Of a DNA stretch of 64,000 nucleotides, positions 11,543-48,614 are shown piece after piece. Positions within the stretch are counted from its first letter, which is position 1, and the number at the start of each line of letters is the position of its first letter. The notes below the pieces were generated by a model, which searched no databases, had not been told where the DNA came from, and worked only from the letters and a program-made list of their open reading frames with translations. This stretch comes from Acidimicrobiia bacterium. GTDB taxonomy: Bacteria; Actinomycetota; Acidimicrobiia; Spongiisociales; Spongiisociaceae. Both the position numbers and the translations under genes were made by a program. Location: positions 64,001 to 128,000 of the forward strand of contig JBFGLM010000002.1 in assembly GCA_041576165.1 (NCBI GenBank). The letters run 5' to 3'.

Positions 11543-11553
11543 CGTGCGAGCCC

Positions 11554-12891: not shown

Positions 12892-12937
12892 GCTGTGACT
12901 CTCCCACGTCGACCGGTCGGTGGGAAACCGGACGCAG

Positions 12938-12966: not shown

Positions 12967-13045
12967 TATTCCACGGTGGGAGGAGGGAGAGATTGGGCTG
13001 TTCAGTGGCGGCCGGTCGCAGAACGCTCCCGGCCGGCGCTGGGGG

Positions 13046-26761: not shown

Positions 26762-26764
26762 GCC

Positions 26765-27553
26765 TCAGTCCTTCTTCTTGGGCCGGCCTTTCGGGTCAAA
26801 CCCGGCCGCCCCGAGTACGTCGGGCGGAACCATCTCCGGCAGGATTGGCACGGGTGAAACCCGCTGGGGCGCGAGCGGGTTGGCGGCGGCCAGTGCTGGT
26901 TTGCTCCATGCCAGCACTGTCACGACTGCGGCGAATACGCCTAGGCCGGCGGCGGCCCACAATTCCAGCCCGATGACGGCCCAAGCTGCCAGCACCGGCC
27001 AGCCCAGCCGTATCGCCCACAGCGCGCGGACGAGCGCCCGCATGTACGCCCAGCCCAGAATCACCCCGGCCGCGGCCAGCACCCACCCTCCGGTGGTCAC
27101 GCCCGCATAGCCGAGAGCGCCCACCACCGCCGGGGAACCGGCCAGCGTTAGTGCCAGCGTGGTGGCAGATGCCGGCACCCGGTCGGGGCGGCTGACAGCC
27201 GCCATGGCCTCCAGCGCCCGACGGCGCCACAGCATCGCAGTGGCGAGCGTCGCGGCGGCTACAGCGATCCACCATCCAGGGGTGATATCCAGCGCGACGG
27301 CGACGCTCAATTCGAACGCGAGCAGGACCGTCACACTGATCGCTACCCATCGGCCCGGCGACAGCAGCGCGGCCACCGCAAGCACGGCGTTGAGTAGAAC
27401 AACGCCGGACGCGAGCAGCGCCGCCGCCGCTTCCGGCCACGGCGTCGGAGCGAAGGTGAGTCGAGCCACCCAGGCAATCGCCGCGATCACCAACACGGCG
27501 GCAGCCCGCACCAGGGCGGTGCTGGCGTGACGTTCGGGGGTCGGGGCGGTCAT
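26765..27553 (-). CDS. Multi-pass membrane hypothetical protein
   Basis: About eight hydrophobic segments; TAGTCT -10 box 8 nt before the ATG. Confidence 0.7.
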   Translation of the reverse strand: MTAPTPERHASTALVRAAAVLVIAAIAWVARLTFAPTPWPEAAAALLASGVVLLNAVLAVAALLSPGRWVAISVTVLLAFELSVAVALDITPGWWIAVAAATLATAMLWRRRALEAMAAVSRPDRVPASATTLALTLAGSPAVVGALGYAGVTTGGWVLAAAGVILGWAYMRALVRALWAIRLGWPVLAAWAVIGLELWAAAGLGVFAAVVTVLAWSKPALAAANPLAPQRVSPVPILPEMVPPDVLGAAGFDPKGRPKKKD

Positions 27554-27623
27554 GTCACAACAGACTAGAACGGGAACAGGGCGCCTCCATCCGGGACGTC
27601 ACTCCCGGCGATAGCATCCCCAC

Positions 27624-28154
27624 ATGTCGACCACACGCGGCTCTTGGCCCGGCGACCCGATCTATTGCTCTCAATGCGGGACTCGGTTGGAAGATCAACC
27701 CATGCACAACGGAGACCTGCGCCCGACATGTCCCCGCTGCGGATACATCGCGTTTCGGAGCCCGTCCGTGGGTGTTGCGGTGCTGGTGCGTGATGCATCG
27801 GGTCGGGTGTTGATGGTGAAGCGGGCCGAGGGTGCCACCCGGCCCGGCCTGTGGTCGATCCCGGCGGGTTACATGGACTACGGCGAAGAGGTCAGAGAGG
27901 CCGCCGCCCGAGAGCTGGAGGAAGAAACCGGGCTCGAGGCCGACGTCGGGGAGGTCGTGTTCGTAGCGTCGAATTTCCACGATCCGGCAAAGCTCACCGT
28001 GGGCATTTGGTTCGAGGGGAACGTGGTTGGAGGCAATCTGGAGGCCGGAGACGATGCGGCAGAGGTGGGATGGTTTTCCCTCGACGAGCTGCCGCCGCTC
28101 GCGTTCGAAACGGATGAGGCGCTGTTCGAACAACTGCGCTCCGGGGTCTGGTGA
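27624..28154 (+). CDS. NUDIX hydrolase with N-terminal zinc ribbon
   Basis: CSQCG/CPRCG and Nudix box GYMDYGEEVREAAARELEEETGL. Confidence 0.92.
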   Translation: MSTTRGSWPGDPIYCSQCGTRLEDQPMHNGDLRPTCPRCGYIAFRSPSVGVAVLVRDASGRVLMVKRAEGATRPGLWSIPAGYMDYGEEVREAAARELEEETGLEADVGEVVFVASNFHDPAKLTVGIWFEGNVVGGNLEAGDDAAEVGWFSLDELPPLAFETDEALFEQLRSGVW

Positions 28155-28241
28155 GGTCAAGCCCGTTAGGTCGCGATCGTCCGCCGAGACGGCGTTGGTT
28201 CACATAGACTCGACTCGGCTTCATCACCGGAGGAGAGGGCC

Positions 28242-28331
28242 GTGAGACCAGGGCACGCCAGCAGATGCACGTCCCGGCGCACCGCCTGGAGCCGGCTGGA
28301 CTCCGGCCATATACCGGACGTGGTGCGATGA
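28242..28331 (+). CDS. Putative 29-aa upstream peptide coupled to the CHAT gene
   Basis: GGAGGAG RBS (28229-28235), GTG 28242, TGA overlapping ATG 28328 (ATGA). Confidence 0.4.
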   Translation: MRPGHASRCTSRRTAWSRLDSGHIPDVVR

Positions 28332-30850
28332 CGGTGCGACCGGCTGAGATCCGGCCACTCGGCGTCCACGAACTCGAGCCGCTCCTCGACCTGGTTGCGG
28401 GCTCCGACCCCGCCGTGCGCCGGAGAGCGCTTGACGTCCTCACCGTCTTTCCTCTGACCGACGCCGCGTGGCGGCACGTGGCGCGAATCGTCCTGGTTGC
28501 GATCGAGCTGGATCCCCATGCAGAAACGCTGGTCGCGGCGGCCCAGGTTCCAGTCCGCGAGGTGCGGGAGCAGTTGCACGCTCAGCTCGGGCTGGCACCA
28601 CCCGAGCAACGCACCGCGCTCGCCCAAGCACTGGTGGCGGCCGGCGACGCCGCGGCCGCGCCGGTGCTGGTGCGCCGGCTCGCAGTGGCGGAGCCCGGCC
28701 GGGCAATGGCCGCCGCCGAGGCGCTTGGGCAGATAGCGCCCGCCGTGCCGACCGGATTGGCGCGGGAGATCTTCGAACAGTCGAAGTCGGACGACGTCCG
28801 CTTGTGGTTGGCAGTCCATCTGGCCAGGGGAGGCGACATCCGACCGCTCCAACAGTTGATCGACGAAGCGGCCGCGGGCAGCTTCCGTCCGGCGCACTAC
28901 CACGGCGATTCGACAGCATGGGCCGCCCGGATAGAGCCGAACCCGCCGATGCCCCGAGTTGTCATCGACCTCACGACCGGCCACGGCGCTGGGGGCAACA
29001 TCGTGGTCGACCTGCTGACGGCGCTGGAGAGTCGGGCGGCACCGGGTGCGGCGAGTGAGCAAGGACACCTGGCCGGGGTCGCGCGCACGGCACTAGACCA
29101 CGCAGCCAATGATCCCACGCAGGCACTTGAGAGCCTCGAGGCGGCGGTCGCGGAGCACGGGATCAAACCTCCCGCCCGGCCCCATTTGGAGAACTCGACC
29201 GTCGACTTGATAGCGCTCGAAGAGGAGGTGTTGGTCGAGACAGCCCCGCTGGATGATCTGGGCCTCGAGAGCCTGGGACCGGTTCGGTCGGCCATGGAGG
29301 CTTCGCCGCCGGATGCCGCGGCGGCATCCGGAACCGACCACGTATATGCCCTCCTCAAATGTCCGGGCACGGTTGCGGCTGAACAGGAATTCGAGCTTGC
29401 GGTCGGCCTGAGTCCCGCTCAGTCCGAAGGTGTCGTCGGCGGGCCGCTGGAGGGTCTCGAGGGCCGAGCCAAACCGTACGTCATCTCCGTCCAGGTGGTA
29501 GCCGACGGGTTTGAGCTGCGGGAAGGCGAGCGCTGGCGCCACGACCTAGCGGTGACCGACGCTCAGCCCTTCCCAACCACGCTATTGCATCTGCGGGCCG
29601 TCCCCACCGACGCGGCGGTGCGGGCGGCCGCCATCTCTGCGACATTCACCGTCGACGGTCAAATGGTTGGCATGGCTGTGCGGCCGGTGGCCATAACGGC
29701 TCCCGGGGTGACCGCCCCGGAGGAGAGCGGACCTCAGGAGGTCGTCGGGGCCGATCTGGCCATCCCTACCGGGCCGGTACCGGCGGATCTCACGGTGGCT
29801 TTCCACCAGGCCCGCGAGCTCCATCTGCTCAGGATGACGATCGAGTCGCCACACGACACGGTGAGAATCCCCGAAATCGACGTCGAGGTGAGCATCGGTG
29901 CCGACCCGGACGAGTACGCCCGTGAACTGGTGCGCGACATGGATGGGCTAGAGGGGAGTGCCGGCTTGCGGCGCGAGCTGGAGGGACGGGGCCGGATGCT
30001 GAGTCAATCGCTGCCCGAGGAGTTCTGGGCAGCACTGCGGGAGGCTGCAGAGGCCGCCGGCGGGCGGCCGTCTGTGCTGCTGGTGTCGGCCGAGGGACGT
30101 ATCCCCTGGGAGTTGGCACTGGTCGATCCGCCACTCGATCCCGACCAGCCGCCGTTTTTGTCGACCCAGGCCGTCATCGGGCGGTGGGTCCTGGCCGGCG
30201 GCGTGCCGCTTCCGCCGCCCCACGAGCGTCCATTCGGTTCGATGGCCGTGATCACCGGCGACTACACCGATCTTCCTCGCTGGGATTCGCTGGCGGCGGC
30301 CGACAATGAACGGGATGAGCTACACGGCCGCTACCAGGCGGAGCCGGTCGACGCCAAGTATGAGCCGGTGATCGAGCTCCTGGAGCGAAAGCCCGCCCCG
30401 ACTGTGTTGCATCTGGCCGTGCACGGCAAGTACACCCAGGGTTCCGGGCGAGAGGGAATTGTTCTCACCGACGGGGAGTGGCTCACGCCCAACGTCGTGA
30501 TGGCCCAGGAAATCGAGGGCGAGCCGCTGGTATTCCTCAACGCTTGCCAGGTCGGTTCGTCGGACGCCGTGCTCAACCAGTACGCCGGGCTGGCTCCGGC
30601 ATTCCTGCGAGCGCGCGCGTGTGGGGTCATTGCGCCGATGTGGAGCGTCAAGGACGAGATTGCTCGCAACATGGCGCTCGGCTTCTACACGGCGACGCTT
30701 GAAGAAGGAGTTTCGGTGGGCGAAGCCATCCGGCGCGCACGATCGGCATTTGCTGCGGGCGGCGAGCCGACTTCTGCGACATTCATGGCGTATCAGTACT
30801 TCGGCCATCCGGAACTCCGGCTGGCCCCGTCGGACCCAGGAGGTGGATGA
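28328..30850 (+). CDS. CHAT-domain (caspase-like) cysteine protease with HEAT-like N-terminus
   Basis: IPWELA, LHLAVHG (His), VFLNACQVG (Cys), GVIAPMWSVKD, AYQYFGHP; N-terminal alpha-helical repeats (DPAVRRRALDVL, AAAEALGQI). Alternative start 28265. Confidence 0.88.
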   Translation: MTVRPAEIRPLGVHELEPLLDLVAGSDPAVRRRALDVLTVFPLTDAAWRHVARIVLVAIELDPHAETLVAAAQVPVREVREQLHAQLGLAPPEQRTALAQALVAAGDAAAAPVLVRRLAVAEPGRAMAAAEALGQIAPAVPTGLAREIFEQSKSDDVRLWLAVHLARGGDIRPLQQLIDEAAAGSFRPAHYHGDSTAWAARIEPNPPMPRVVIDLTTGHGAGGNIVVDLLTALESRAAPGAASEQGHLAGVARTALDHAANDPTQALESLEAAVAEHGIKPPARPHLENSTVDLIALEEEVLVETAPLDDLGLESLGPVRSAMEASPPDAAAASGTDHVYALLKCPGTVAAEQEFELAVGLSPAQSEGVVGGPLEGLEGRAKPYVISVQVVADGFELREGERWRHDLAVTDAQPFPTTLLHLRAVPTDAAVRAAAISATFTVDGQMVGMAVRPVAITAPGVTAPEESGPQEVVGADLAIPTGPVPADLTVAFHQARELHLLRMTIESPHDTVRIPEIDVEVSIGADPDEYARELVRDMDGLEGSAGLRRELEGRGRMLSQSLPEEFWAALREAAEAAGGRPSVLLVSAEGRIPWELALVDPPLDPDQPPFLSTQAVIGRWVLAGGVPLPPPHERPFGSMAVITGDYTDLPRWDSLAAADNERDELHGRYQAEPVDAKYEPVIELLERKPAPTVLHLAVHGKYTQGSGREGIVLTDGEWLTPNVVMAQEIEGEPLVFLNACQVGSSDAVLNQYAGLAPAFLRARACGVIAPMWSVKDEIARNMALGFYTATLEEGVSVGEAIRRARSAFAAGGEPTSATFMAYQYFGHPELRLAPSDPGGG

Positions 30851-32337
30851 TGGACTACGACCTCGATCCCTACGGCGATCCGGTCGCCGTCGATGACGTC
30901 GTGCTGCGTACCCCCGGCCTGGCCGGACGCGTACGGACGATCACCGCCTCCGGGCAGGCCATGCGTTCGGAGGCCCAATGGACGTCGGCTCTGTCCGAGG
31001 CGCTGGCCAACGAGAACGTCGAGCCCCAGGTCGTCGTTGAGATATCCGACACAGAGGAGACCGACGTTCCGGCGGGCGTAGGCACCCGTTCGACCGCAAT
31101 CGGGGAGCCGGGAATCGAACTCGAGGTGCCCGGGCCCGGCACCGGGTGGGGTCAGCTGATCCTGTACACCGACGAATCGGGAGTTGCCACCTGGGAGTTC
31201 GCAGAGAACGGAGACAGCCAGGAGGCGGCTACGCGCGGTGCAAATACTCAGACGTACGTGCTCCGGCGTTCCGTGCCGCCGCCGGCAGCCCCTGAAGCCG
31301 GCGCTAGTCGCGGGGTGCTCTCGTCCATCGGTAGGAAGGTCTTGGGCGTCTTGGCTTTCAAGCTGATTGATCCAGTAATAGGCGCGATCGGAGAGGCCTT
31401 TGCCGAGCGGTGGGAGGCGAAGAAGCGGCCATATCGCATCCGGTCGTTTGCTCCCGATTCGTACCGAGAGTCCGACGGCCCGCTGATCGATTCGACCGGA
31501 TGGAACCGTCTTGGTGAGGGCAAGTCACTGCTGTTCGTGCACGGCACGTTCTCCCGTGCCCATACGGGCTTCAGCGGGCTTTCACCCCACGTGATGAAGG
31601 ACCTGCACCGCATCTACGAGGGTCGGATCTTCGCGTTCGACCACTTCACCCTTTCCCACACTCCCCAGCAGAACATCGAATGGTTGCTCGGCCAGCTACC
31701 CGATGGCGTCAGCCTCGACCTGGACATCGTCTGCCATTCCCGGGGCGGTTTGGTGAGCCGGACACTGGCCGAGAAACAGGGTGAACTGTCGACCGGAGGC
31801 CGCACCGTCAACGTCGACAAACTGGTATTCGTCGCCACTCCCAACTCCGGGACGGCGCTGGTCGACACCGAGCACATGTCTCAGTTCATCGATACGTATA
31901 CAAACTTGTTCAACTTCGTGCCCGACAACGGGGTCACCGAAGTCCTGGAGGGCGTCATCACCGTGGCGAAACACATCGCCGTAGGCGCAGTCAAAGGTCT
32001 GACCGGTCTCCAATCCATGCATCCGGGGGGTGACTTCCTTCGGTGGCTCAACGTGCCGACCGGCATCGGAAGCCGCTACTACGCCCTCGCCGGCAATTTC
32101 GAGCCGGCGGACCGGGGGTGGGCGAACTGGGCCAAGAACCACCTCATGGACGCAATATTCCAAGGTAACAATGATCTTGTCGTACCGACCAAGGGTGTCT
32201 TTGCCGCCAACGGATCCACCCAGTTCCCGGTGGACCAGCGACTGGAGTTCGGTGCCGACGCCGGTATCAACCACAGCACCTTCTTCGCAGACCAGATCGT
32301 CCAGGACAGACTGCTGTCGTGGCTCGGGTCGGGCTAG
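30847..32337 (+). CDS. Alpha/beta-hydrolase (lipase-like) with N-terminal pro-region
   Basis: LFVHGTFS, IVCHSRGGLV (nucleophile elbow), VATPNSGT, NDLVVP, INHSTFF; ATGA-coupled to the CHAT gene. Confidence 0.85.
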   Translation: MMDYDLDPYGDPVAVDDVVLRTPGLAGRVRTITASGQAMRSEAQWTSALSEALANENVEPQVVVEISDTEETDVPAGVGTRSTAIGEPGIELEVPGPGTGWGQLILYTDESGVATWEFAENGDSQEAATRGANTQTYVLRRSVPPPAAPEAGASRGVLSSIGRKVLGVLAFKLIDPVIGAIGEAFAERWEAKKRPYRIRSFAPDSYRESDGPLIDSTGWNRLGEGKSLLFVHGTFSRAHTGFSGLSPHVMKDLHRIYEGRIFAFDHFTLSHTPQQNIEWLLGQLPDGVSLDLDIVCHSRGGLVSRTLAEKQGELSTGGRTVNVDKLVFVATPNSGTALVDTEHMSQFIDTYTNLFNFVPDNGVTEVLEGVITVAKHIAVGAVKGLTGLQSMHPGGDFLRWLNVPTGIGSRYYALAGNFEPADRGWANWAKNHLMDAIFQGNNDLVVPTKGVFAANGSTQFPVDQRLEFGADAGINHSTFFADQIVQDRLLSWLGSG

Positions 32338-32432
32338 CGCGGCCTGGTTTTCAACCGTCCGGCATCGGACGGTCGAGATGCGTAGGGTCGGGACGGGACT
32401 GGGGGTAGAAGTCGCACGTGGGACAAGGTCGG

Positions 32433-35400
32433 ATGGTGGCGAGCGGCGATCCACAAACATATGAACGCCCGGTCGCAAGGCCGGTGGCCGGCCGTCGTAC
32501 GTTCGCCCTGTGGCTCATCGTCGCGGCTGCCCTTCTCGTCATAGCGGCAACGCTGGCGGCACTGCCGATAGCTCATGGACTGGAGGAACACTGCACCGGC
32601 GATATCGTCGTCATGATCGATGCGCCGCTGCGGGCCGGTCCGCTCGATTGGTCGTTCAGCACCGAGGTTGTCGACCTCTCGGGTGACCCGATCCCCCCCG
32701 GCACCTACGACGTCAGCCTGGTGACTTCCGACCCAGGGCACGCGCAGCCGGGGGACGTGAGCCAGCCGGCCGAAATCTGGTACGTCGAGCTGCTCGATGC
32801 CGATACGAGTCCGATCTACACCTCCGAGTGGACGACCGACCTGGCCGATACCGCTACCGAGCGGATTGATGCCGTCCAGCCCCAGGCGGTTCTCGAGTCC
32901 GCCGCCATCACGCTGGTCGCGCGCCACGCCATCGAGGAGATCGAGCGCGACGGGAACGGCAACATCGTGGCCAGCGGCATCAACTCGCTCACCGCGGTGT
33001 GCGCCATCTTCAACTCGGTCTCCATGCCTGTTCTGCCCCTGGAGGTTGGCATCGCAGCCGAGGTGGATCCCGGATCAGTGACGGTCGGCGCCGCCTCCCC
33101 CGCGACCTTCCAGCTTTCGATCAGCAATATCGGCCAGGCTCCAGCCGGCGAGCTGGTGATCGATCAGCCCTTGTGCGGAGACGTCACGGGTCAAACGCTC
33201 GCTCCTGGCGGCGTGGTGACGGTGTCATGCCAGGTCGACGTGTCTCACGGCGGGGTGCTCGATTTGAGAGTCACGGGCGTGAGCGACGGCCGGGCGGTCG
33301 CCGGCGAGACGATGCTGGCGGTGCTCGTCTCAGAGCTCATGATCGAGCCCGAGGCACCGCTGGTTCAGGGGACCCAGGGCGGGTCAGCCACCATTGAGGG
33401 GGTCATCCGCGACAGTGGAACAGTGGCGCTGGCCGAGGTCACGCCCGCGGTCACCGGGCTGCCCGCCGGGGTCACTGCCTCCTGCGGCGCGGCCCCCGAC
33501 CTGGCCCCAGATCAAGAATCCAGCTTCACCTGTTCGCTCGCCGGTGTCGCCGCTGGTGGATCGGCGTTCGACGTTGCCGTCGGTGTGACCGCGGTGAGCG
33601 CCAACCCGGCCCGGGTGGCGGCGGCCGATACCGCCACTGTGACCGTCGTGCCGTGGGAGTCGCAGCCGGCGCTCACGATCGAGATCACACCGGAGACGAT
33701 CACGGTGACCGAGGGGGATACGGTGCAGTACACCGTCGTCGTGGGAGCCGCCGGTATCAATGTGCCTATCGACGTGATGGTTGATACTCCGGCCGACCAA
33801 TGCAGCCGCCAGATTCCGGCCGGCGCCGCCTTCCCCGATGTCCTGACGTGTGAGGTCGTGGCGACCAACACAACCACGATCGATGCGACGGCAACGGCCG
33901 ACACCGGAGGCGCCCAGCCACTCACGGCCACCGATGTATCGACCTTGATCGTCGAGGGCCTGGTCGACATCGAGCTGGACGTCTCGCTAGACGAGCAAAG
34001 GATCGACGTGGGAGACACGGTCGAAATGAGGGTGCTGGTGCGGAACCTCGGCCCGGCTAAGTCCGGGAAGGTGACGGTTGAGATTGATCTGCCCTCAACG
34101 ATCGGCACCGTGAGGTGCTCGGGCCCGCCCGCCGACACATTTGTTTGCTCACGCTGGGTTATCGAAGATGGTCTCGAGAAGGATGACCAGGCGGTTGCCT
34201 CCTACATCCTGCGCGGCGCGGCAGCCGGCTCCGACCCGATAGTTGCCGAAGTCGTTGAAATCGAGGGTGCCCGCGATACCGACTCGGAGCCAGACGACCA
34301 GACCGGCGACGACCACGACTCTGAGGCCCTGATCGTCGAGCGGCCGCCGAATCGCATCATCCCTCGGGGCACCATCAGCGGCTGTGTCTTTCTCGACGAC
34401 GACGAAGACGGCGAACTCGACACCGGCGAAGAGCTGCTCGACGGTGTCCGGGTGTTTTCGGGCTCCAGCAGCGACTTGACCGCCGGCTCGGGGTATTCGT
34501 TCCGGATAGAGGCCGGCACCTACCGGGTGGCGGTCGATGTGGACACCCTGCCGGGTCTCTTCGACTTCTCGACTCCCGCGACCCGCCTTGTCACGGTCCG
34601 GGCCAACCGAACAACGTCCGACATCTGCTTCGGCGTCGTGCCGACCGGCGTCTACACCTTCACCCTTACCGCCGATCCGGCAGAGATCCAGATCGATTCC
34701 ACGGCGGCCGTGAGCGTGCTCGTCGACGGCCCGGACCGGCCCGACGTCCCGGTCATCTTCGATCCGCTGCCCGGCGGCTTGGAGCTGGTCGGTCCCCGCC
34801 GGGTCGACGTGACTGTGGGCGAGCCCTTCGACGTCGAGATCAAAGGGGAACAAAACGGTCGATATTTGATATCAGCGCGAGCCCAAACCGACGGCGTCAC
34901 GGGACCAGTGGCAACGACTGCGCTGATTGTCATGCTTCCCCCCTCCAAGATAGGGGGCACGGTATTCGTGGATTCCGACGGGGACGGCGTGCTGGACCCC
35001 GACGAGGAGCCGCCGGCAGACGCATCGACCCTGCGGGTCCTGGCGATCAAACGCGACAAGATCCAGCCGGCCGCCGCTCAATCTGCGGGCTCGGGGCTCG
35101 GGTACTACGGCTCGGGGGTCCTTCAGTCCCGGATATCCCTGTTCCAGGGCGCGTCGCTGCTCGGCTTCGTCTTCTTCGTGGATGAAAACGGCCGCTACGT
35201 TACAGAGACGCTCACGCCGGGCAAGTACCAGCTGGAGCTGATCGATTCGGCCGACCGGCGCATCGAGTCGCTGCCCGAGGGCCGCCAGATCGCCCTGCCC
35301 CGCGACGCCGGCAATCACGACCTGGACTTTGCAGTGACCGCCCAGCTCGACGCCGACCGGATCAGCGGCCGGGTGTGGATCGACGAGAACGGTAACGGCG

Positions 35401-37769
35401 AGATAGATGACGGCGAACGGGGATGGGGCGGTGCCATGGTCACGATCTCCGACCTCGATGGGAACACCGAACCACAGATCGTGACGACCGAGCTGGTCGC
35501 GGGCGATGAGGCCCGATATGACGCGGTCGTCGAGCCGGGCCGCTATCGGGTCAGCATCGCCGATCAGGGGGGCGCCGAGCTGGGCTTCTCGACCGCGCAT
35601 CCGATCGACGTCGAGGTGCCCGGTGGCATCCCGTTCGACCAGGTGGACTTCGGCGTCACCGATGGGCCATTCGGCGTCATCAGTGGCGGCGTCTGGTGCG
35701 ATGTCAATGACAACGGAACGCTTGATCAAAACGAGACCAGCTTCCCCGGCGTTGTGACCTTGGGCGGGCCGGTCGGGCAGCGCACGGCCACTGTCCAGGC
35801 GGACGGGCACTACGAGTTCTCCGGGTTGAGCAAGGGCGATTACACGGTGGCCTACACCCAGCAGCGTTCCGAAGCCGACCCGATCGAAAAAAACGAGACG
35901 GTCACGCTCGGGCTGGCAGAGGTGAGAAACGACGTTGATCTCAAGCCCTGTCCCAAAGGTTCCATCGGCGGAATCATCTACGTCGACGAAAACAACAGCG
36001 GCTCCTTTGAAGAAGGAGCCGACCGCCCGGCGCGTGGGATCAGCGTCCAGTTGTGGCATTCAGGTGCTCCGATCTCGGAGCGAGCGGCCGTTGAGGTCGA
36101 GGATGTCCGAGAGGGGGAAGCCGCCCGATACCTGTTCCAGCATCTCGCCCCGGGCCTCTACAGGGTCGTCGTCATCGGTGCTGTTGATGACGCGACACTC
36201 GCCATCGGCCGGCGCACGCCCGTGACGATCGAGCCCGGTAGCACCGAGCGCGTCGATCTCGACGTGCGTTTCACCACACAGTCGGGCATCCCGCTCTGGG
36301 TGTGGGTCCTCCTCGGCGGCGCGGCGGCCTTGGCGATCCTGTACTACCTGACGCGGCACGTGCCGGTGCCCATGCCTGTCCCCATCCCAGGGTCGCCGCC
36401 TACCGACCGGGGGCCACCGACCCCGACCCCGTATCCGGGTGTCCGGCCCTTCGGACCGGCCGAGGCGCCGGTATTCGCCGGACGAGAACGCGAGATCAGG
36501 GCGCTCGAAGCTCTGACGTATCCCAACAGGATCCTGCTGCTGTACGGCCCGGCCGGTGCCGGCAAGACCTCGCTGCTGCAAGCTGGGTACATCCCTGCGC
36601 TCGACCCAACGGAATTCGAGGTCCTGCCCACTGCCCGCTTCCAGCTTGGACCGCCGCGCCCGCCCACGGATGGCGCCAACGTCTTCTCATATGCGGTGCT
36701 CTCTTACCTGTCTCAGTCCGCCGTGCCGGCTGCCGCCACCCTGGCGGATTACCTAGATCAGCGCCCGCCGATTGTTGGGGAATTCGACGTCGAGGTGGCG
36801 CGGGTGATCGTGATCGACGAGTTCCAGGAGATGTTCCGGCTCTATCCGGAGTACTGGCACCAGCGTCAATCCTTCTTCGATCAGATCGGCGAGGCGCTGG
36901 AATCCGATCCGCTGGTCCGGTTCGTGCTGTGCATCGACGAGCATGAGATGGGGGAGCTGGAGCCATTCATCGAGCAGTTCGGGCCACACGTCGTCTCGGA
37001 ATACCGAATCGAGCCGCTCCGGCCGGAGCAAGCGCTGGCGGCGATCTCCCATCCTGCGGAGCTGGACGGACGGCGTATGTCCGAGGCGGCGGCCGCGGCG
37101 TTGGTGGACGAGGCTCGCACCGTGCGTGCCGAGCATGACGGGCACCGGATCGAGGTTGTGTACGAGCATGCCGACCCGATGGCACTCCAGCTCAGCGCCG
37201 AAGCTACCTGGCGCCACGCTGACGGTGACGAGATTGGGCCCGACGACATCGTCGGGTGGGAGGATGGCGATGCTGCGATCGAGGCGTTCTACGAATCGAT
37301 CGTGGCCGCGGTGGCTCCCCAGGCCGGTGAAGCCGCGTTGAGAGAGTGGTGTGAGCGGGTTCTGATCGACCCGACCGGCAACCGGGCGGTGCTGGTCCCG
37401 GGTCGCGGCGGCGCCCGCCAGATGCCGGCCGACGTCATCGAATCGTTGACCATGCACACCTTGCTGGTCGGGTCGGTACGCGGAGACGTCCGCTGGCTGG
37501 AGCTGGCGCATGATCGTCTCGTGCCTGCCATCGAGCTCAGCAACCGGAAATGGAGGGAACAAACGCTGATCGAGGCATCGGCCGGCCTGCTCTCGGCCGC
37601 GGCCCGGATCTGGGAACGGCATGGCCGGGATGAAGACGGCCTCCTCGTGGACGGTGCGTTGACCGACGCCCGTCTGTGGGCGGCGGCGTATCCCACGCGG
37701 GTGGGTCCGCTCGAGCGTGAATACCTGGAGGCCAGCATCGCCGCCAGCGAGCGACCCGTCGGCAGCTGA
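32433..37769 (+). CDS. Giant adhesin (Ig-like/DUF11/SdrD-B repeats) - TM - nSTAND1-type NTPase fusion
   Basis: N-terminal signal/TM; five IxGxhhhDxxxxG SdrD-B starts (34374, 34950, 35361, 35678, 35963); TM ~36288-36355; PYPGVRPF...FAGRERE, GPAGAGKTS, VIDEFQEMF, ELAHDRLV. Start uncertain (32418-32433). Confidence 0.85.
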   Translation: MVASGDPQTYERPVARPVAGRRTFALWLIVAAALLVIAATLAALPIAHGLEEHCTGDIVVMIDAPLRAGPLDWSFSTEVVDLSGDPIPPGTYDVSLVTSDPGHAQPGDVSQPAEIWYVELLDADTSPIYTSEWTTDLADTATERIDAVQPQAVLESAAITLVARHAIEEIERDGNGNIVASGINSLTAVCAIFNSVSMPVLPLEVGIAAEVDPGSVTVGAASPATFQLSISNIGQAPAGELVIDQPLCGDVTGQTLAPGGVVTVSCQVDVSHGGVLDLRVTGVSDGRAVAGETMLAVLVSELMIEPEAPLVQGTQGGSATIEGVIRDSGTVALAEVTPAVTGLPAGVTASCGAAPDLAPDQESSFTCSLAGVAAGGSAFDVAVGVTAVSANPARVAAADTATVTVVPWESQPALTIEITPETITVTEGDTVQYTVVVGAAGINVPIDVMVDTPADQCSRQIPAGAAFPDVLTCEVVATNTTTIDATATADTGGAQPLTATDVSTLIVEGLVDIELDVSLDEQRIDVGDTVEMRVLVRNLGPAKSGKVTVEIDLPSTIGTVRCSGPPADTFVCSRWVIEDGLEKDDQAVASYILRGAAAGSDPIVAEVVEIEGARDTDSEPDDQTGDDHDSEALIVERPPNRIIPRGTISGCVFLDDDEDGELDTGEELLDGVRVFSGSSSDLTAGSGYSFRIEAGTYRVAVDVDTLPGLFDFSTPATRLVTVRANRTTSDICFGVVPTGVYTFTLTADPAEIQIDSTAAVSVLVDGPDRPDVPVIFDPLPGGLELVGPRRVDVTVGEPFDVEIKGEQNGRYLISARAQTDGVTGPVATTALIVMLPPSKIGGTVFVDSDGDGVLDPDEEPPADASTLRVLAIKRDKIQPAAAQSAGSGLGYYGSGVLQSRISLFQGASLLGFVFFVDENGRYVTETLTPGKYQLELIDSADRRIESLPEGRQIALPRDAGNHDLDFAVTAQLDADRISGRVWIDENGNGEIDDGERGWGGAMVTISDLDGNTEPQIVTTELVAGDEARYDAVVEPGRYRVSIADQGGAELGFSTAHPIDVEVPGGIPFDQVDFGVTDGPFGVISGGVWCDVNDNGTLDQNETSFPGVVTLGGPVGQRTATVQADGHYEFSGLSKGDYTVAYTQQRSEADPIEKNETVTLGLAEVRNDVDLKPCPKGSIGGIIYVDENNSGSFEEGADRPARGISVQLWHSGAPISERAAVEVEDVREGEAARYLFQHLAPGLYRVVVIGAVDDATLAIGRRTPVTIEPGSTERVDLDVRFTTQSGIPLWVWVLLGGAAALAILYYLTRHVPVPMPVPIPGSPPTDRGPPTPTPYPGVRPFGPAEAPVFAGREREIRALEALTYPNRILLLYGPAGAGKTSLLQAGYIPALDPTEFEVLPTARFQLGPPRPPTDGANVFSYAVLSYLSQSAVPAAATLADYLDQRPPIVGEFDVEVARVIVIDEFQEMFRLYPEYWHQRQSFFDQIGEALESDPLVRFVLCIDEHEMGELEPFIEQFGPHVVSEYRIEPLRPEQALAAISHPAELDGRRMSEAAAAALVDEARTVRAEHDGHRIEVVYEHADPMALQLSAEATWRHADGDEIGPDDIVGWEDGDAAIEAFYESIVAAVAPQAGEAALREWCERVLIDPTGNRAVLVPGRGGARQMPADVIESLTMHTLLVGSVRGDVRWLELAHDRLVPAIELSNRKWREQTLIEASAGLLSAAARIWERHGRDEDGLLVDGALTDARLWAAAYPTRVGPLEREYLEASIAASERPVGS

Positions 37770-37785
37770 GCTCGATCGCTGCTGG

Positions 37786-39210
37786 CTAACTGATGGCGGC
37801 GGTCTCTCCCCACCGCCGGCGCAGCTCGTCGGTGAACTCCTCGGGCTTGCCGGGATACAGCGATAGGTTCCACTGCTGGTTGAAGTAGCCCTTGACGTAG
37901 TCGATCATGCCCGGGTCGGCGTCCGGGCTGACCTGCACCGCCACATTGAGGAGCTGGTTGCTGACTCCGTGCCGGAAGCGGGGCAGGATGGCGTGAAGGA
38001 GCGCCCGGAATCCCAGGTCGTCCCAGTCGAAACCCAGGAACAGCAAGGCCCCTTTGCCAATCGCGTGCAGGATCGCCTGGGGCAACGTCGTCTGATCGCT
38101 GGTGACCCCTACTGCGAACGACAGGTAGTCGTCCTCGGACAGGATCATCGACTCGGCGTGGTGGTCGCCGCTGGTTCCGTATAGGTGATAGACGACCGGT
38201 TCGGTGGCTTTCAACTCGAACGAGGGGTCGTGGAGCCTGGAGGATTGTTCCGGCATGATCGCCTCGGACGGCCTATAGCGGTCGGACATCGGTATCCGCG
38301 GGTTGGGCTGCTCCTGCAGCGCCGCTTCGAGATACGCGTCCTGGTTGGTTGTCAGGTATACGGCAAGCGGCAGATCCGCCAGAATCCGGTACGGCGCAGT
38401 CTTGTCCGCCGCGTCGGAGATCTTCAGCTTCTCCAGCCGCTCGGACAAGGCATAGTTGGCCATCAGCTGGTCCTGAGAGTTCTTCACCTTCACGAACTGA
38501 ACCACCCGGGCAAACTCGCGCGCCCACCGGCGGGCCAACCTCTCCTGCGCGTCGGGCTCCTCGCTCGCCGCCAACTCGATCAGGTCGGCCGGTCGGTGAT
38601 AGCCGAACTTGTCCGCCCAGTCGGCGGCCAGGTCTGCCTTGATTCTGGTTGCGTCGGGTGACAAGCCGCCACCGAGGAAGGGCACCAACTTGCCGCGCTT
38701 GATATTGGCGATCAGCGCATCCCAGTCCTGGTCGGAGAAGCCGGTATCGGTGCTGCGCCACTCGATTGACCGGCTCTTGAACGTCTCCTCGATCTCTTCG
38801 ATCAGGGGCTCGAGGCTGGCCGCCTTCTCCTCGGTCAATTGGAAGGCTGGTTTCATCGCCACCTCGAGCAGCGCTTCCGGAAGCTCGTCCTGCGTGGGGC
38901 GCTCGACATCTGGCGCCATCAGCAACAGGATCCGGGCCGGGCCTCGTAGTGCCTGATGTAGCAGGTCGGCGATCGGATCGCCGTCTGTGTGCAGGGCTAC
39001 CGACCCGGTCTCGTCTTCGGCCAGCCATTGATCCCCGACGAGAACGACCAGCACCTCGGTATCGCTGAGCCGGTCGGCGCTGTCGGTATCCGGCGACGGC
39101 TGATCCAGAGCCACGTTGTGATCGCCGAAGTGCCGCGCCAGTAGCTCCCGGGTCGTTGAAGCAAGACCGGCCGTATCGGACCTGCGGTAACTGATCAGGA
39201 TCGTGGCCAC
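37786..39210 (-). CDS. TIR-like domain fused to a SIR2-like (SIR2_2) domain
   Basis: GGAGG then GTG 39210; ILISYRRSD TIR start; LVPFLGGG, YLTTNQD, VYHLYG, LSEDDY, LLFLGF. Confidence 0.85.
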   Translation of the reverse strand: MATILISYRRSDTAGLASTTRELLARHFGDHNVALDQPSPDTDSADRLSDTEVLVVLVGDQWLAEDETGSVALHTDGDPIADLLHQALRGPARILLLMAPDVERPTQDELPEALLEVAMKPAFQLTEEKAASLEPLIEEIEETFKSRSIEWRSTDTGFSDQDWDALIANIKRGKLVPFLGGGLSPDATRIKADLAADWADKFGYHRPADLIELAASEEPDAQERLARRWAREFARVVQFVKVKNSQDQLMANYALSERLEKLKISDAADKTAPYRILADLPLAVYLTTNQDAYLEAALQEQPNPRIPMSDRYRPSEAIMPEQSSRLHDPSFELKATEPVVYHLYGTSGDHHAESMILSEDDYLSFAVGVTSDQTTLPQAILHAIGKGALLFLGFDWDDLGFRALLHAILPRFRHGVSNQLLNVAVQVSPDADPGMIDYVKGYFNQQWNLSLYPGKPEEFTDELRRRWGETAAIS

Positions 39211-39288
39211 ATCGTCCTCCCGTTCGGTTTCCACCCTACGCATTCACCCGTGTCCGTGGCCGGCACCGCTTGGGTAGGGTGCTAGTCC

Positions 39289-40944
39289 ATGGATCTCGCG
39301 CAACTGCTGACCGAACTCGGTCAAGCGCTCGGCGCCCATGACGAGACGGCGGTGGCAGACATCGTTGACCTGGTCGTTGCGCACATCCTCGGGTCGGATG
39401 AGCCGTTCTCGCCCGAGCTGGCCACCGAGATGCTGGGCACGCTTTTCCACAAGCGCAGTTTCCAGTCGGTAGCACGGCTGGGCGATGCCCTGTTGCAGGT
39501 CGGCGTAGACGAGCCGAAGGTGCGGGGTTACTACGCAGGCGCTTTGGCTGAGGAAGGCTTCTTGACGCCGGCCGAATCGATGGCTGAGAGTCTCAAGTCC
39601 AATTCGGTGGAAGATCCAGCCGAGCGGGCGTGGGCGCAGGAGTTCCTGGGCGGGGTCCGATCCCGGCTGTACGTTCAGGCGACGGGCATGCGGGGGGCGC
39701 GCCGTGAGCGCTTCCTCGACGGAGCGCTATCGGAGTATTGGGGCGCGTACGACGTCGCCCCGGGCGACCACCCCTCTCACGGCATCCAGGTCGTCGGGTT
39801 GCTCAGGCGGGCGGAGGCCGACGGTGTTGACCCGGGCCATTACGGAGACACGACCGAGATCGCCCGCAGGGTGGCAGAGACCGTGCGTGATTCACTCCGA
39901 CCGTCGGACCTGGTCACAGCCGTCAAGGCGGCCGTCACGCTGGGCGACGGCCACGCCGCGCTGGAAGCCGCCACCCGGCTGATCAGCCATGAGCAGGCCG
40001 AGGCGTACGAGCTGAGTGCGCTGCTGTGGGATCTCACGAACATCTGGGGCGTCGACGAAGCACGCGACGACAACAAGCAGCTGATCGGGTTGATCAAGAC
40101 CGGGCTGATGCAGCGGCCCGACTTCAGTCGAGTCGAGCTGACGCCGTCGGAGGCGAGAGCCGCCGCCGAGGGCCTCGACCGGGTCGGAGCCGGCGCGGTA
40201 CCGAGCGGAGCGGCGGATATTCAGCAGGACATCCCGGGCCTGGAACGGATCCTCGGCAAGGAAGGCGTGCGGACCCGGCGGTGGATCCTCAACATGCTCG
40301 ATCGGAGCCGGGCCGTCGCTCGAATAGAGGACCACAGCGAGAAAGCGATGGGCACCGGCTTCCTAGTGCCCGGTCAGGCTCTGCACGATTCGCTCGGTGA
40401 GCAGATGGTGCTCGTCACCAACAACCACGTCATTGCGTCCCGGCCCGAACGCAACCAACTGAAGCCTCTCGAAGCCGTCGCCCGCTTCCAGGCGCTTGAG
40501 GAAGAGGGCGAACGGGCCGGCGTCGACGTAGGCGACCCGATCTTCGAGTCGCCCGTGGAGAAGCTAGACGTGTCCGTTCTCGAGTGCGGGGCCCCCGAGG
40601 GAATGACGCCTTACCGGATCGCCGAGGATCTGCCGGATCACGACGCCATCGATGAAACGGCCAAGGTCTACGTCATCGGGCACCCGGGGGGCCGTACGCA
40701 GTCATTCTCGCTCGACGACAATCTACTGATCGACTACGACGACGAGGTGCTTCACTACCGGTCGCCGACCGAACCGGGGAGTTCAGGGAGTCCGCTGTTC
40801 GATCAGCAGTGGAACCTGATCGGCCTGCATAGTCGCGGCAACGAGAACTTGCCCAAGCTCAGAGGCCAGCCGGGCCGGCGTGAAGCCAACATGGGTTTTC
40901 GCATCACTGCAGTGAGAGCGGCGATGGAAATCTCGCTGCGGTAG
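39289..40944 (+). CDS. Trypsin-like serine protease with N-terminal helical (TPR-like) domain
   Basis: GTGFLV, TNNHVI (His), KLDVSVL (Asp), VIGHPGG, TEPGSSGSP (Ser), LIGLH; no signal peptide. Confidence 0.88.
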   Translation: MDLAQLLTELGQALGAHDETAVADIVDLVVAHILGSDEPFSPELATEMLGTLFHKRSFQSVARLGDALLQVGVDEPKVRGYYAGALAEEGFLTPAESMAESLKSNSVEDPAERAWAQEFLGGVRSRLYVQATGMRGARRERFLDGALSEYWGAYDVAPGDHPSHGIQVVGLLRRAEADGVDPGHYGDTTEIARRVAETVRDSLRPSDLVTAVKAAVTLGDGHAALEAATRLISHEQAEAYELSALLWDLTNIWGVDEARDDNKQLIGLIKTGLMQRPDFSRVELTPSEARAAAEGLDRVGAGAVPSGAADIQQDIPGLERILGKEGVRTRRWILNMLDRSRAVARIEDHSEKAMGTGFLVPGQALHDSLGEQMVLVTNNHVIASRPERNQLKPLEAVARFQALEEEGERAGVDVGDPIFESPVEKLDVSVLECGAPEGMTPYRIAEDLPDHDAIDETAKVYVIGHPGGRTQSFSLDDNLLIDYDDEVLHYRSPTEPGSSGSPLFDQQWNLIGLHSRGNENLPKLRGQPGRREANMGFRITAVRAAMEISLR

Positions 40945-40992
40945 CGCTCGCTGTGCCCGCCCGAACCGAGTTCAGGGCGGGGCCGTCGCGGC

Positions 40993-41616
40993 TCAGCGCT
41001 CGGTGGGCGGGAACGCCGTCTGCTTCGGCGGAGCCCACCTGACCCGCTCTTGCCACGGATCGGCGGGCACGAGCTCAAATACCTCGGCGTGGAGCGGCTT
41101 GTCGCCGTTGAGGGTGTGCAGCGAACGGCCGGTGAGGCCGAGGCGGGCGGCCTGAATGGGATCCTGATGAGAGACGACGGCGACTGGACCGTCGATCTGC
41201 GCAGACCAGCGGCCGATCGCGGACGCCATGCGGTGCGCCAGAGCGGCCAGCGACTCGGCGGACCACGGCAGGTCCCACGGGTGCCGCAGATAGGCGTCGA
41301 GCTCGCCGGGATAATGGTCGTCGAGCTCCTCCCATACCAGGCCTTTCCAGCGCTGGGCCATACCCCACTCGGTGAGCTCATCATCGATCCTGACTTCGAG
41401 GCCGTGCGGTCGAGCGATTGCTGCGGCGGTTTCACGCGCCCGCCGCAGGGGAGACGCCACCACGGCCGCGAGCCGGCGGGGAGCCAGGTACTCGCCGGCC
41501 TCGTCGGCCTGGCGACGGCCGAGATCACTCAGCCCGAATCCCGGAAGGTCGGCATATACGATGTGGTCGGGGTTGTGCACCTCGCCGTGGCGCACGAGAA
41601 ATACGGGGTGTGACAC
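40993..41616 (-). CDS. Histidine phosphatase family protein
   Basis: LVRHGE, SPLRRARETA, VSHQDPI; GTG 41616 is 7 nt after TACACT. Confidence 0.9.
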   Translation of the reverse strand: MSHPVFLVRHGEVHNPDHIVYADLPGFGLSDLGRRQADEAGEYLAPRRLAAVVASPLRRARETAAAIARPHGLEVRIDDELTEWGMAQRWKGLVWEELDDHYPGELDAYLRHPWDLPWSAESLAALAHRMASAIGRWSAQIDGPVAVVSHQDPIQAARLGLTGRSLHTLNGDKPLHAEVFELVPADPWQERVRWAPPKQTAFPPTER

Positions 41617-41644
41617 GAGTTCGAGTGTAAGGGTCCCGGGAGCA

Positions 41645-42853
41645 GTGACAGAAACCGAGCGGCGGTTCGACGAGCCGATTCTCCACGTCGACATGGATGC
41701 CTTCTATGTAGAGGTGGAACGGCTGCGCGATCCGTCCCTGGTGGGGGCCGCGGTCGTGGTCGGCGGTGCCGGGCCCCGAGGCGTCGTGGCGTCCGCCTCC
41801 TATGAGGCGAGGGCATTCGGGATCCGATCAGCAATGGCCATGGGCGAGGCTCGGCGGCGGTGCCCGGAACTGGTGGTCGTGGCGCCCGATCACGGGCGTT
41901 ACGGCGAGGTTTCCGAGGCGGTGTTCGAGATCTTTCGCAGCTACACCCCCGTGGTCGAAGGGTTGAGCGTCGATGAGGCGTTCCTCGACATCCGGGGCCT
42001 GCGCCTGCATTACGGGTCGCCGCTGGAGGTGGCGGCGGCGATCAGAACCCAGATCCGTCATGAACTTGGCTTGCCCGCCTCGGTCGGCATCGCGGCCACC
42101 AAATTCGTAGCCAAGCTGGCGTCGGCCCACGCCAAGCCGGACGGAATCAGACACGTTGCGGCCGGAGCGGAGGCCGCATTCCTCCACCCGCTGGCGGTGC
42201 AGGAGCTATGGGGGGTGGGCGCGGCTACCCACGCGGCGCTCGAACAGCTCGGGGTGGAAACGATCGGAGATCTGGCTGCAATCCCTGCGCCGACGCTCCA
42301 TCGAAGGCTGGGAACGGCGGTGGGGGGCCAGCTGGCCGCGCTGAGTCATGGGATCGATCCCCGCACGGTGGAACCCGATCTCGCAGCCAAGTCCCTGTCC
42401 GTCGAACACACCTATCCCGTCGATATCAGCGGCTACGAAGTCTTGGAGTCCGAAACGCTCCGGCATGCTGAGCGCCTGGGTAGCCGGCTCAGGAGGGCCG
42501 GGCTGAGCGGCCGTACCGTCGGACTCAAGCTGAGATACGCCGACTTCACGACAGTGACCCGCAGCGAGACGCTGGCGTCGCCGACCGACGTCAGTCGCGA
42601 CATCTATCAGGCGGCCAAGCGCCTGTTGGCCGGGCTTGACGTTGGAGACCGGCCGGTGCGCCTTCTAGGTGTGGGGATGAGCGGGCTGAGCGAAGCGGGC
42701 GGTATCCGTCAGCTGGCCGTCGACCGTCCTGCCAAATGGGACGACGTTGCTGATGCGGTGGAGAGCGTTCGACGGCGCTACGGTAACGATGCAGTGGCTC
42801 CGGCGCGGCTGCGGGACACCCCCGACGAAGGGGCCTCCGAGCGACCGGATTGA
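41645..42853 (+). CDS. dinB: DNA polymerase IV
   Basis: HVDMDAFY, SASYEAR, SVDEAFLD, AKLAS...KPDG, VRLLGV. Confidence 0.95.
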   Translation: MTETERRFDEPILHVDMDAFYVEVERLRDPSLVGAAVVVGGAGPRGVVASASYEARAFGIRSAMAMGEARRRCPELVVVAPDHGRYGEVSEAVFEIFRSYTPVVEGLSVDEAFLDIRGLRLHYGSPLEVAAAIRTQIRHELGLPASVGIAATKFVAKLASAHAKPDGIRHVAAGAEAAFLHPLAVQELWGVGAATHAALEQLGVETIGDLAAIPAPTLHRRLGTAVGGQLAALSHGIDPRTVEPDLAAKSLSVEHTYPVDISGYEVLESETLRHAERLGSRLRRAGLSGRTVGLKLRYADFTTVTRSETLASPTDVSRDIYQAAKRLLAGLDVGDRPVRLLGVGMSGLSEAGGIRQLAVDRPAKWDDVADAVESVRRRYGNDAVAPARLRDTPDEGASERPD

Positions 42854-48465: not shown

Positions 48466-48614
48466 CTGTTGCACCTCACGTCGAACCTCGCAGACATTAC
48501 TAGGGGGCCAGGATTGTGGCACCGTGAGCTTTGGGGCAGGCGCCGGGGCGAGCCCGAATGCCCGAGCACCAGGTACCAGCGCCCGGATCTCTTTCAGGTA
48601 CCCTCTCGCGAGTC

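Follow-up and report, generated by a model that had tools for sequence, protein, structure and literature searches.

Can events at the cell surface trigger suicide-type responses in bacteria, and by what means are separately encoded effectors recruited by an NLR-like ATPase? Known bacterial STAND and NLR-like immune proteins sense phage proteins inside the cell. Both questions are opened by a locus in the genome of an Acidimicrobiia bacterium (GenBank assembly GCA_041576165.1, contig JBFGLM010000002.1, positions 64,001 to 128,000 of the forward strand). This whole stretch of 64,000 nucleotides is called the window here, and coordinates given without a contig refer to it. An island of 12.8 kb (28155-40992) holds five open reading frames (ORFs) between a NUDIX gene and a His_Phos gene, encoding a CHAT protease, an alpha/beta-hydrolase, a receptor-like STAND NTPase, a TIR-SIR2 protein and a trypsin; the four other than the STAND protein are cytoplasmic, suicide-type enzymes. 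The evidence leans towards the five genes forming one accessory, horizontally acquired conflict or programmed-death system around the receptor-like STAND NTPase. With a surface stalk of 1,240 residues as its only candidate sensor and with all outputs in separate genes, this STAND protein would be a tractable case. Furthermore, the locus joins CHAT, an uncharacterised and highly conserved DUF7379 hydrolase, a SIR2 clade without the canonical His and a TPR-S-trypsin in one small, clonable and transferable block.

The inserted block and its receptor-like protein

The five genes, their flanks and the two junctions are as follows (aa, amino acids).

28265-30850, plus strand: CHAT (caspase-like) protease, 861 aa (Pfam CHAT, 1e-14 at aa 696-832)
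30847-32337, plus strand: DUF7379 alpha/beta-hydrolase, 496 aa (PF24096, 1e-56)
32418-37769, plus strand: receptor-like STAND protein, 1783 aa, whose database entry begins 5 codons later (Pfam SdrD_B, DUF11/CARDB and nSTAND1)
37786-39243, minus strand: TIR-SIR2 protein, ORF of 485 aa (Pfam SIR2_2, 1e-13; orthologs P0246-P0248)
39289-40944, plus strand: TPR-S-like helical domain (aa 1-340) followed by Trypsin_2 (aa 355-513), 551 aa (Trypsin_2, 2e-18)
27624-28154: NUDIX, the upstream flank (Pfam)
40993-41694: His_Phos_1, a branch-1 histidine phosphatase, the downstream flank (Pfam)
28155-28264: left island junction, from the NUDIX stop to the CHAT start (spacing in relatives; X1 Logan contig)
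40945-40992: right island junction, where the convergent trypsin and His_Phos genes flank a GC-rich inverted repeat (sequence; Logan contigs)

An original prediction, made from the letters of the window, had placed five contiguous genes between a NUDIX and a histidine phosphatase gene at 28242-40944. All five ORFs are real and Pfam identifies both flanks. The end of that interval is retained, whereas 28242 is out of frame with the CHAT ORF, whose first start is at 28265.

The five-gene block is an insertion, and its genes form one inserted block. A His_Phos ortholog is present in 25/25 genomes of the family. Among the 11 relatives' loci that were read, the gap between NUDIX and His_Phos is 0-190 bp in five and about 0.8 kb in two, and in the remaining four NUDIX lies outside the 1.5-kb flank of His_Phos. 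Logan contigs from X1, which may be the source sample of this assembly, span the left junction (26500-31335) and the right junction (37869-41120), and a Logan contig from X6, which belongs to another study, independently spans the right junction (40856-41338). Thus, the block is not an assembly chimera. Short-sided Logan joints were set aside as looking like noise. Neither an integrase nor a tRNA gene was found at the island ends, and a repeat search gave only repeats that look like chance, with no att-like sites and no direct repeats on the flanks. Scans of the island for Rfam families and tRNAs gave nothing. The GC content is 0.659 for the island and 0.658 for the window, with values of 0.64-0.68 throughout. 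DNA near-identical to 30000-39900 is also present in metagenome runs from several studies, four of which hold 0.90-0.97 of the words and two 0.39-0.48; there is no RNA run among the sequencing runs listed with island DNA.

The centre of the block is the large protein, which is built of the following parts.

32508-32564, plus strand: N-terminal signal anchor or signal peptide, aa 31-49 (hydropathy 2.69)
32580-33062, plus strand: conserved ectodomain head, aa 55-215, a fold without a match (alignment A1; 39-44% identity to orthologs)
33063-36284, plus strand: ectodomain stalk of DUF11/CARDB Ig-like modules, then five SdrD_B repeats of D-x-D-x-D-G type (Pfam, SdrD_B in three stretches)
36285-36341, plus strand: transmembrane (TM) helix, aa 1290-1308, followed by a Pro-rich linker (hydropathy 2.05)
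36429-37637, plus strand: cytoplasmic nSTAND1 NTPase, aa 1338-1740 (PF20703, 100 bits, 2e-28)

These parts bear out the build first proposed for this protein, an adhesin-like region joined through a TM helix to a STAND NTPase; Walker A K1383 and Walker B D1467/E1468 are invariant in 3/3 sequences. The two hydrophobic helices bracket about 1,240 residues. In the predicted topology the N-terminus is cytoplasmic, these residues lie outside as the head and a stalk of Ig-like and Ca-binding SdrD_B modules, and a single TM helix leads back to the cytoplasmic nSTAND1 domain. R26/R27, before the first hydrophobic segment, are invariant in alignment A1, and the RRTFAL sequence before this segment (32487-32498, aa 24-27) resembles a twin-arginine export motif. 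In the head, C59, C195, H108 and H170 are invariant, and the ESM Atlas gave no usable match for it. Pfam and the alignment place only a tail of 43 aa after the NTPase, with no cytoplasmic repeat sensor and no fused effector. Given this lack of both, sensing by the ectodomain and effectors acting in trans are the natural reading. A complex prediction of STAND aa 1310-1783 with the TIR-SIR2 protein scored 0.13 (mark 0.32), which is evidence neither way.

The large repetitive ectodomain and weak NCBIfam matches to MSCRAMM SdrD/SdrC-like proteins could instead suggest that the protein is mainly a surface adhesin, that its NTPase regulates its own display and that the neighbouring enzymes are unrelated. 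This is considered very improbable. The nSTAND1 module is the best-conserved part of the protein, at 56-62% identity to orthologs versus 31-49%, with many indels, for the stalk. In addition, the neighbouring genes are conserved along with the large protein, and relatives carry quite different ectodomains on the same NTPase next to the same CHAT-SIR2 neighbour.

In the wider setting, the island is preceded by fatty-acid synthesis genes and followed by DinB, a TgpA-DUF58-MoxR triad and the dcw cluster. The longest DinB ORF (GTG 41372) overlaps the opposite-strand histidine phosphatase gene by about 320 nt (41372-41694), and the true DinB start is probably further downstream. The triad of TgpA transglutaminase, DUF58 and MoxR (AAA_3) genes at 43967-48522, 3 kb downstream of the island and beyond His_Phos and DinB, is probably an unrelated conserved operon outside the insertion; its MoxR also matches the bpMoxR model (46 bits).

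Relatives of the STAND module and the recurring gene set

A search with the STAND module gave 148 matching proteins, of which 120 were listed (119 non-self). Among the matches listed, the layout of ectodomain, TM helix and nSTAND1 with DUF11/SdrD_B is shared only by P0007 and P0008, each found on one contig, the two measuring 12392 and 16776 bp. Contigs of these same sizes in base pairs carry the two best hydrolase matches (76-77%, next 58%) and two of the three TIR-SIR2 orthologs (53% and 41%; next 32%), and co-location is taken from the identical sizes. For a 6.8-kb metagenome contig (L004) the order CHAT, hydrolase and start of the STAND gene was read directly. Its CHAT ortholog is 60% identical to the island protein, its hydrolase is identical to P0127 and its STAND fragment is identical to P0008 in 788/789 residues, which makes it the P0008 locus. 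The order of CHAT, hydrolase and STAND is kept at 51-77% protein identity. As judged from these matches, at least one sister locus links all four of CHAT, hydrolase, STAND and TIR-SIR2, and a second links three of the four. A metagenome-contig search with P0007 found no related locus, and a genome-contig search with alignment A1 gave one weak Streptomyces match of 86 residues. The locus is rare (three loci found), conserved and transferable.

The topology proposed for the island protein recurs among more distant relatives. A strong hydrophobic helix follows the NTPase in 111 of the 117 other listed STAND relatives (P0009-P0125), typically from about residue 474. Among the 71 relatives with a P-loop pattern placeable before the helix, 60 have more Lys/Arg on the N-side of the helix than on the other side, 7 have equal amounts and 4 have less. 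Among the domains that lie beyond the helix are LysM, GH25, PPC, TSP3/FGE, SH3_3, Bmp/PnrA solute-binding and WD40. All of these apart from WD40 are domains typical of the cell exterior. From such features, an NTPase inside and a sensor outside appear to be the rule for the STAND clade, and the present protein would keep this topology with the domain order inverted. Since the nearest clade is almost entirely TM-bearing with extracytoplasmic-type domains, the case for ectodomain sensing and effectors in trans is strengthened. No discussion of the TM-after-NTPase layout of P0009-P0125, in nSTAND1-WD40/TPR relatives, was found in the accessible text of the literature.

The STAND module is found in 0/24 same-family genomes and in 1/16 further same-order genomes (34% identity). 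Only two genomic STAND relatives were identified in 440 genomes, in G034 (34%) and G196 (30%), and both (2/2) are directly downstream of a CHAT-SIR2 fusion.

L034 (G034:C64), 7195-13224: two-gene operon, a CHAT-SIR2_2 fusion of 689 aa, then nSTAND1-TM-WD40
L035 (G196:C1), 7259-11910: two-gene operon, a CHAT-SIR2_2 fusion of 709 aa, then nSTAND1-TM-SH3_3

PADLOC gives no system match for either of them, and two-gene loci of CHAT-SIR2_2 and nSTAND1-TM may be a widespread unnamed system. Fusions of CHAT and SIR2_2 (about 690 aa) also make up 19/32 non-self matches to the TIR-SIR2 protein. Because most other members of the SIR2 clade are fused to CHAT, and such fusions adjoin the STAND clade, CHAT, SIR2 and STAND are tied to each other independently of this lineage. 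As STAND relatives sit after CHAT-SIR2 fusions, the island appears to derive from a two-gene system by dispersal of its parts.

The genome itself (G000) encodes further nSTAND1 paralogs.

C22, 70402-75294: nSTAND1 paralog
C37, 20802-26438: nSTAND1 paralog
C20, 20013-25841: nSTAND1 paralog
C14, 54726-58661: nSTAND1 paralog
C105, 2831-8034: nSTAND1 paralog

The paralogs join Trans_reg_C-BTAD (SARP) and Ser/Thr kinase(-cyclase) domains to nSTAND1, a TM helix and WD40 or Bmp/PnrA domains, and the helix is present in 7/9 examined. From this domain content they look like membrane-spanning one-component regulators. Such signal-transduction receptors (Trans_reg_C-BTAD-(kinase)-nSTAND1-TM-WD40/Bmp) within the same genome, together with the adhesin-type stalk modules SdrD_B, DUF11 and CARDB, would fit a cell-envelope or developmental receptor that is not antiviral. 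The ectodomain would then report wall state, attachment or kin contact, and the enzymes would effect regulated proteolysis or programmed death as a multicellular or aggregating bacterium develops; the available text of Kaur et al. (2020; PMC7159879) ties systems of this kind to a multicellular habit. This explanation is judged unlikely given that the block is inserted, that a search of 24 same-family genomes found no STAND gene and that TPR-S-trypsin was not found in 400 phylum genomes. Moreover, CHAT, TIR, SIR2 and trypsin constitute a conflict-system effector set, and a patchy distribution suits defence better than core development.

The enzymes: one pathway or several

In the CHAT protein a HEAT-like region at the N-terminus and a conserved middle domain precede the C-terminal CHAT domain, in which the His and Cys predicted to be intact are H720 and C761, invariant in 5/5 aligned sequences. 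The CHAT stop codon overlaps the hydrolase start (ATGA), and this predicted coupling is seen in the ORF coordinates. The Ser-Asp-His triad of the hydrolase was also correctly predicted, as S298/D443/H476 are invariant in 42/42 aligned sequences. The term lipase is narrower than the evidence: PF24096 establishes an alpha/beta-hydrolase, while the AlphaFold2 (AF2) model (pLDDT 86) matches esterases, lipases and thioesterases without preference and has a beta-rich N-domain without a clear match. Membrane lipolysis, which had been put forward as one output and depends on this generic fold match, was not upheld.

DUF7379 is present in 5/400 other phylum genomes. CHAT is directly upstream of DUF7379 in 4/5 phylum genomes (3/4 without the unpublished genome G041) and is fused to it in the fifth; the pair is seen in L004, G404, G418, G173 and G041. 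According to the available text of Kaur et al. (2020; PMC7159879), the caspase-superfamily domain in the systems described there always has a neighbouring alpha/beta-hydrolase gene. The literature search found no paper on DUF7379 by name. Each island gene is single-copy in the genome, except for a second DUF7379-CHAT module, fused into one protein that reaches the end of its contig after more than 1,529 aa (G000:C97:4808-9394; L016).

The trypsin gene has the divergent orientation and intact triad that were predicted, with H380/D427/S499 invariant in 22/22 aligned sequences. Pfam TPR-S is found in 21/22 aligned family members, which align end to end, and the island trypsin (P0005) falls below the threshold. 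The closest relative, P0278, is 52% identical and the next 38%, a gap that mirrors the ortholog gaps of the other island genes. Fusion of TPR-S-trypsin to nSTAND1 is seen in P0316, and STAND-EAD1-TPR-S-trypsin fusions also exist. The literature search found no relevant paper on TPR-S with trypsin.

The TIR-SIR2 gene is convergent with the STAND gene, and the stops are 16 nt apart in the ORF coordinates, as had been stated. Its start is probably GTG 39210, where the orthologs begin.

38764-39210, minus strand: TIR-like domain, aa 12-160 (Foldseek to SARM1 TIR, E 3e-4; the TIR_2-annotated P0276 and P0277 align here)
37789-38730, minus strand: SIR2_2 domain, aa 172-485 (N300 kept, canonical His position Y355; alignment to ThsA)

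In the AF2 model (pLDDT 80.7) the SIR2 part matches KomC, ThsA and DSR2 by Foldseek, and the first 150 residues match SARM1 TIR. The SIR2 half of the predicted TIR-SIR2 protein is confirmed by Pfam, whereas the TIR half is below the Pfam threshold and is backed by the two TIR_2-annotated matches and the SARM1 match; a phmmer search of PDB sequences with the TIR part returned chance matches only.

Promoter-like elements lie before three of the genes.

32354-32373, plus strand: 8-bp perfect hairpin in the hydrolase-STAND spacer (sequence)
32382-32388, plus strand: GTAGGGT, -10-like, 29 nt before the STAND start (sequence)
39233-39239, minus strand: GTAGGGT, -10-like, 22 nt before GTG 39210 of TIR-SIR2 (sequence)
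39274-39280, plus strand: GTAGGGT, -10-like, 8 nt before the trypsin ATG (sequence)

The 64 kb contain three GTAGGGT copies in all, each in the coding orientation and 8-29 nt ahead of the start of the STAND, TIR-SIR2 or trypsin gene, and CGCGTAGGGT lies upstream of the STAND gene in L004. With GTAGGGT 8 nt before its ATG, the trypsin mRNA is possibly leaderless. The 11-mer ATGCGTAGGGT was rejected as a system-specific operator, as its two window copies compare with 0.62 expected, 11/100 shuffles reach two and GTAGGGT is a general word.

Several observations weigh against a single working system. GTAGGGT occurs 103 times genome-wide, 34/103 at most 45 nt upstream of an ORF of at least 150 aa; this promoter-like word is probably a general -10 box of TAnnnT type, which suggests three separate promoters beside the CHAT-hydrolase operon and not a private operator. 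In 5/5 other phylum loci, no gene of the STAND clade, the SIR2 clade or the TPR-S-trypsin family lies within 17-20 kb of the CHAT-hydrolase pair, which can therefore act on its own. No EAD-like adaptor is common to the five proteins at the level of BLASTP and Pfam, to which the adaptor search was confined: all-vs-all BLASTP gave nothing below E 0.03, and there was no EAD Pfam match. The paralogs in this genome combine nSTAND1 with SARP DNA-binding and kinase domains, so that nSTAND1 also serves ordinary signalling. Since the three loci group in a tight clade, perhaps a single lineage, their agreement does not amount to three independent events. For the trypsin, the evidence comes down to the 52% relative P0278 as a candidate counterpart; of the predicted co-occurrence of five families, the sister loci support at least CHAT, hydrolase, STAND and TIR-SIR2.

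The remaining points concern catalysis by the TIR-SIR2 protein. Active TIR NADases have a catalytic Glu after a conserved Trp. In alignment A2, the Glu column of P0276/P0277 is L or I in the four orthologs and no Glu could be placed with confidence, and a D or E is found four residues after W72 in all four. In the residue-level alignment to ThsA, whose N112 and H152 we take to be the catalytic Asn and His of the SIR2 NADase, N300 corresponds to N112 and Tyr355 to H152. F or Y occupies this His column in 26/31 clade members, His353 two residues earlier is conserved, and the G196 SIR2 keeps the canonical His. NAD+ depletion, proposed as an output of the locus, is made uncertain by the replacement of the canonical SIR2 His by Tyr.

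Taken on their own, the isolated CHAT-hydrolase pairs, the separate promoter-like elements and the lack of shared adaptors by BLASTP would also be expected of a mosaic, in which a CHAT and DUF7379 pair, a STAND and TIR-SIR2 pair and a stand-alone TPR-S-trypsin are co-inherited in one lineage and form no single pathway. One such pair, in G404, lies between two insertion sequence (IS) integrase genes (L012, G404:C4, 7272-19574), where it adjoins a Hen1-Pnkp RNA-repair pair and comes just after dnaG-rpoD. The TPR-S-trypsin family is likewise large and mostly of stand-alone proteins of about 540 aa, with 495 representatives below 1e-30. A mosaic nevertheless appears doubtful: the order of CHAT, hydrolase and STAND is maintained across the identities given above, the SIR2 clade is otherwise CHAT-fused in proteins whose genes adjoin the STAND clade, and the STAND protein has no output domain of its own. 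The claim of a split system with effectors in trans is supported by the single inserted block, the recurrence of at least four genes and the absence of a fused effector; a shared adaptor was not found by BLASTP.

If the five genes act as one system around the STAND receptor, the locus would be a dispersed version of the two-gene design, in which a CHAT-SIR2 fusion is followed by nSTAND1-TM-ectodomain. CHAT would be separate and accompanied by its usual DUF7379 partner, SIR2 would be fused to a TIR-like domain, and TPR-S-trypsin would have been added. The ectodomain may sense a change of the surface or wall, for which phage adsorption, wall breaching and contact with another cell are candidates. 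The signal would cross the helix and cause nucleotide exchange and STAND oligomerisation at the inner membrane face, and the oligomer would gather and switch on CHAT and/or the TPR-S-trypsin. These proteases could then activate the hydrolase and TIR-SIR2, which would attack lipids or proteins and NAD-type metabolites and so lead to cell death or dormancy. Oligomerisation, trigger, protein contacts, order of activation and substrates are all purely inferred.

A broader and more tentative possibility is that the locus, the CHAT-SIR2/nSTAND1-TM pairs and about 110 TM-bearing nSTAND1 relatives together represent an undescribed transmembrane NLR-like receptor class. Its STAND ATPase would read events outside the cell, among them phage adsorption, wall breaching and cell contact, and assemble a membrane 'apoptosome' to fire a caspase-like and trypsin cascade onto SIR2/TIR and hydrolase executioners. 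If true, receptor-coupled death signalling would thereby have a bacterial counterpart.

Comparison with known systems

As had been expected, PADLOC gives no system-level match, and its weak matches are to single domains (ThsA-like, RT-protease-like). The view that the combination is not a named system survives to that extent, and the five-gene set was not found described in the accessible text of the literature, where the source-data tables of Kaur 2020/2021 and Kibby 2022 list many architectures and might hold it; all of the parts and the logic are, however, already published. The combination is not outside the known kinds, because the caspase and hydrolase pairing, nSTAND1, trypsin, TIR and SIR2 in trans, and a receptor-like order of NTPase, TM helix and ectodomain are all in print; the island looks like a rare, rearranged representative of a known class of bacterial conflict systems.

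The closest published setting is the catalogue of NTP-dependent conflict and apoptosis systems of multicellular bacteria (Kaur, Burroughs, Iyer and Aravind, 2020, PMC7159879; Kaur et al., 2021, PMC8195603). As far as the accessible text goes, these systems share with the island an nSTAND1 core, here with intact Walker A and B, a caspase-superfamily protease with a neighbouring alpha/beta-hydrolase, trypsin, TIR and SIR2 effectors, some of them in trans, and a patchy, island-like distribution. In contrast, no EAD/Death-like adaptor pair was detected here, there is no MoxR-vWA core and no EACC1, and an N-terminal extracellular stalk takes the place of the C-terminal cytoplasmic repeat sensor. 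Membership of the VMAP or MoxR-vWA ternary systems was considered for the caspase-hydrolase pair and rejected, as no MoxR or vWA gene lies in 28155-40992. An nSTAND1 with a trans-encoded trypsin is described, in the text available, for a diversity-generating retroelement (DGR) locus (PMC10907252).

The two-gene loci of G034 and G196 have the same STAND clade (30-34%), the same SIR2 clade by clade hidden Markov models, a CHAT protease, a membrane-spanning STAND and a non-cytoplasmic sensor. They differ in that CHAT and SIR2 are one protein and that the STAND module comes first with a C-terminal ectodomain, whereas in the island CHAT and SIR2 are separate and the order is inverted. Furthermore, they have no DUF7379, TIR or trypsin, all of which are present here.

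Receptor-like ParA systems (PCTM and the TIR-ParA receptor subtype) couple a ParA-TM-extracellular sensor to a caspase or TIR, and their authors propose sensing of periplasmic or peptidoglycan perturbation and wall breaching, according to the accessible part of a 2026 preprint (bioRxiv 10.64898/2026.10.19.760177). A cytoplasmic NTPase switch, a single TM helix, an extracellular sensor and a neighbouring effector gene are common to both, and the sensors of the ParA systems are themselves variable (Ig-like, SH3, GH25, cadherin). However, their NTPase is of the ParA/SIMIBI kind with type II topology, whereas that of the island is nSTAND1, and the effector sets differ. On the text available, the two have no more than the design principle in common.

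Single-chain antiviral STANDs (Avs5 SIR2-STAND, Avs2 trypsin-like, bNACHT) likewise couple a STAND ATPase to SIR2, TIR or protease effectors. As described in the accessible sources, they carry a fused N-terminal effector and a C-terminal cytoplasmic sensor that binds phage proteins, whereas the island STAND protein has its sensor outside the cell and lacks a fused effector; a TM-bearing C-terminal class is noted among bacterial NACHT proteins. PADLOC gives no Avs match, only PDC-S68 at E 0.007 over 34 residues. The SIR2_2 fold is shared with ThsA, DSR2 and KomC/HAM-SIR2 (Foldseek E 3e-9 to 1e-5; PADLOC ThsA 3e-9), and Asn300 is equivalent to ThsA N112. Unlike Thoeris, in which ThsA is a SIR2 or TM effector with a SLOG/Macro sensor and ThsB is a separate TIR protein, TIR and SIR2 are here in one chain, there is no SLOG/Macro domain and Tyr stands at H152. 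What is new at this locus is a STAND version with an adhesin-like N-terminal stalk, no detectable adaptors and a particular set of four enzymes.

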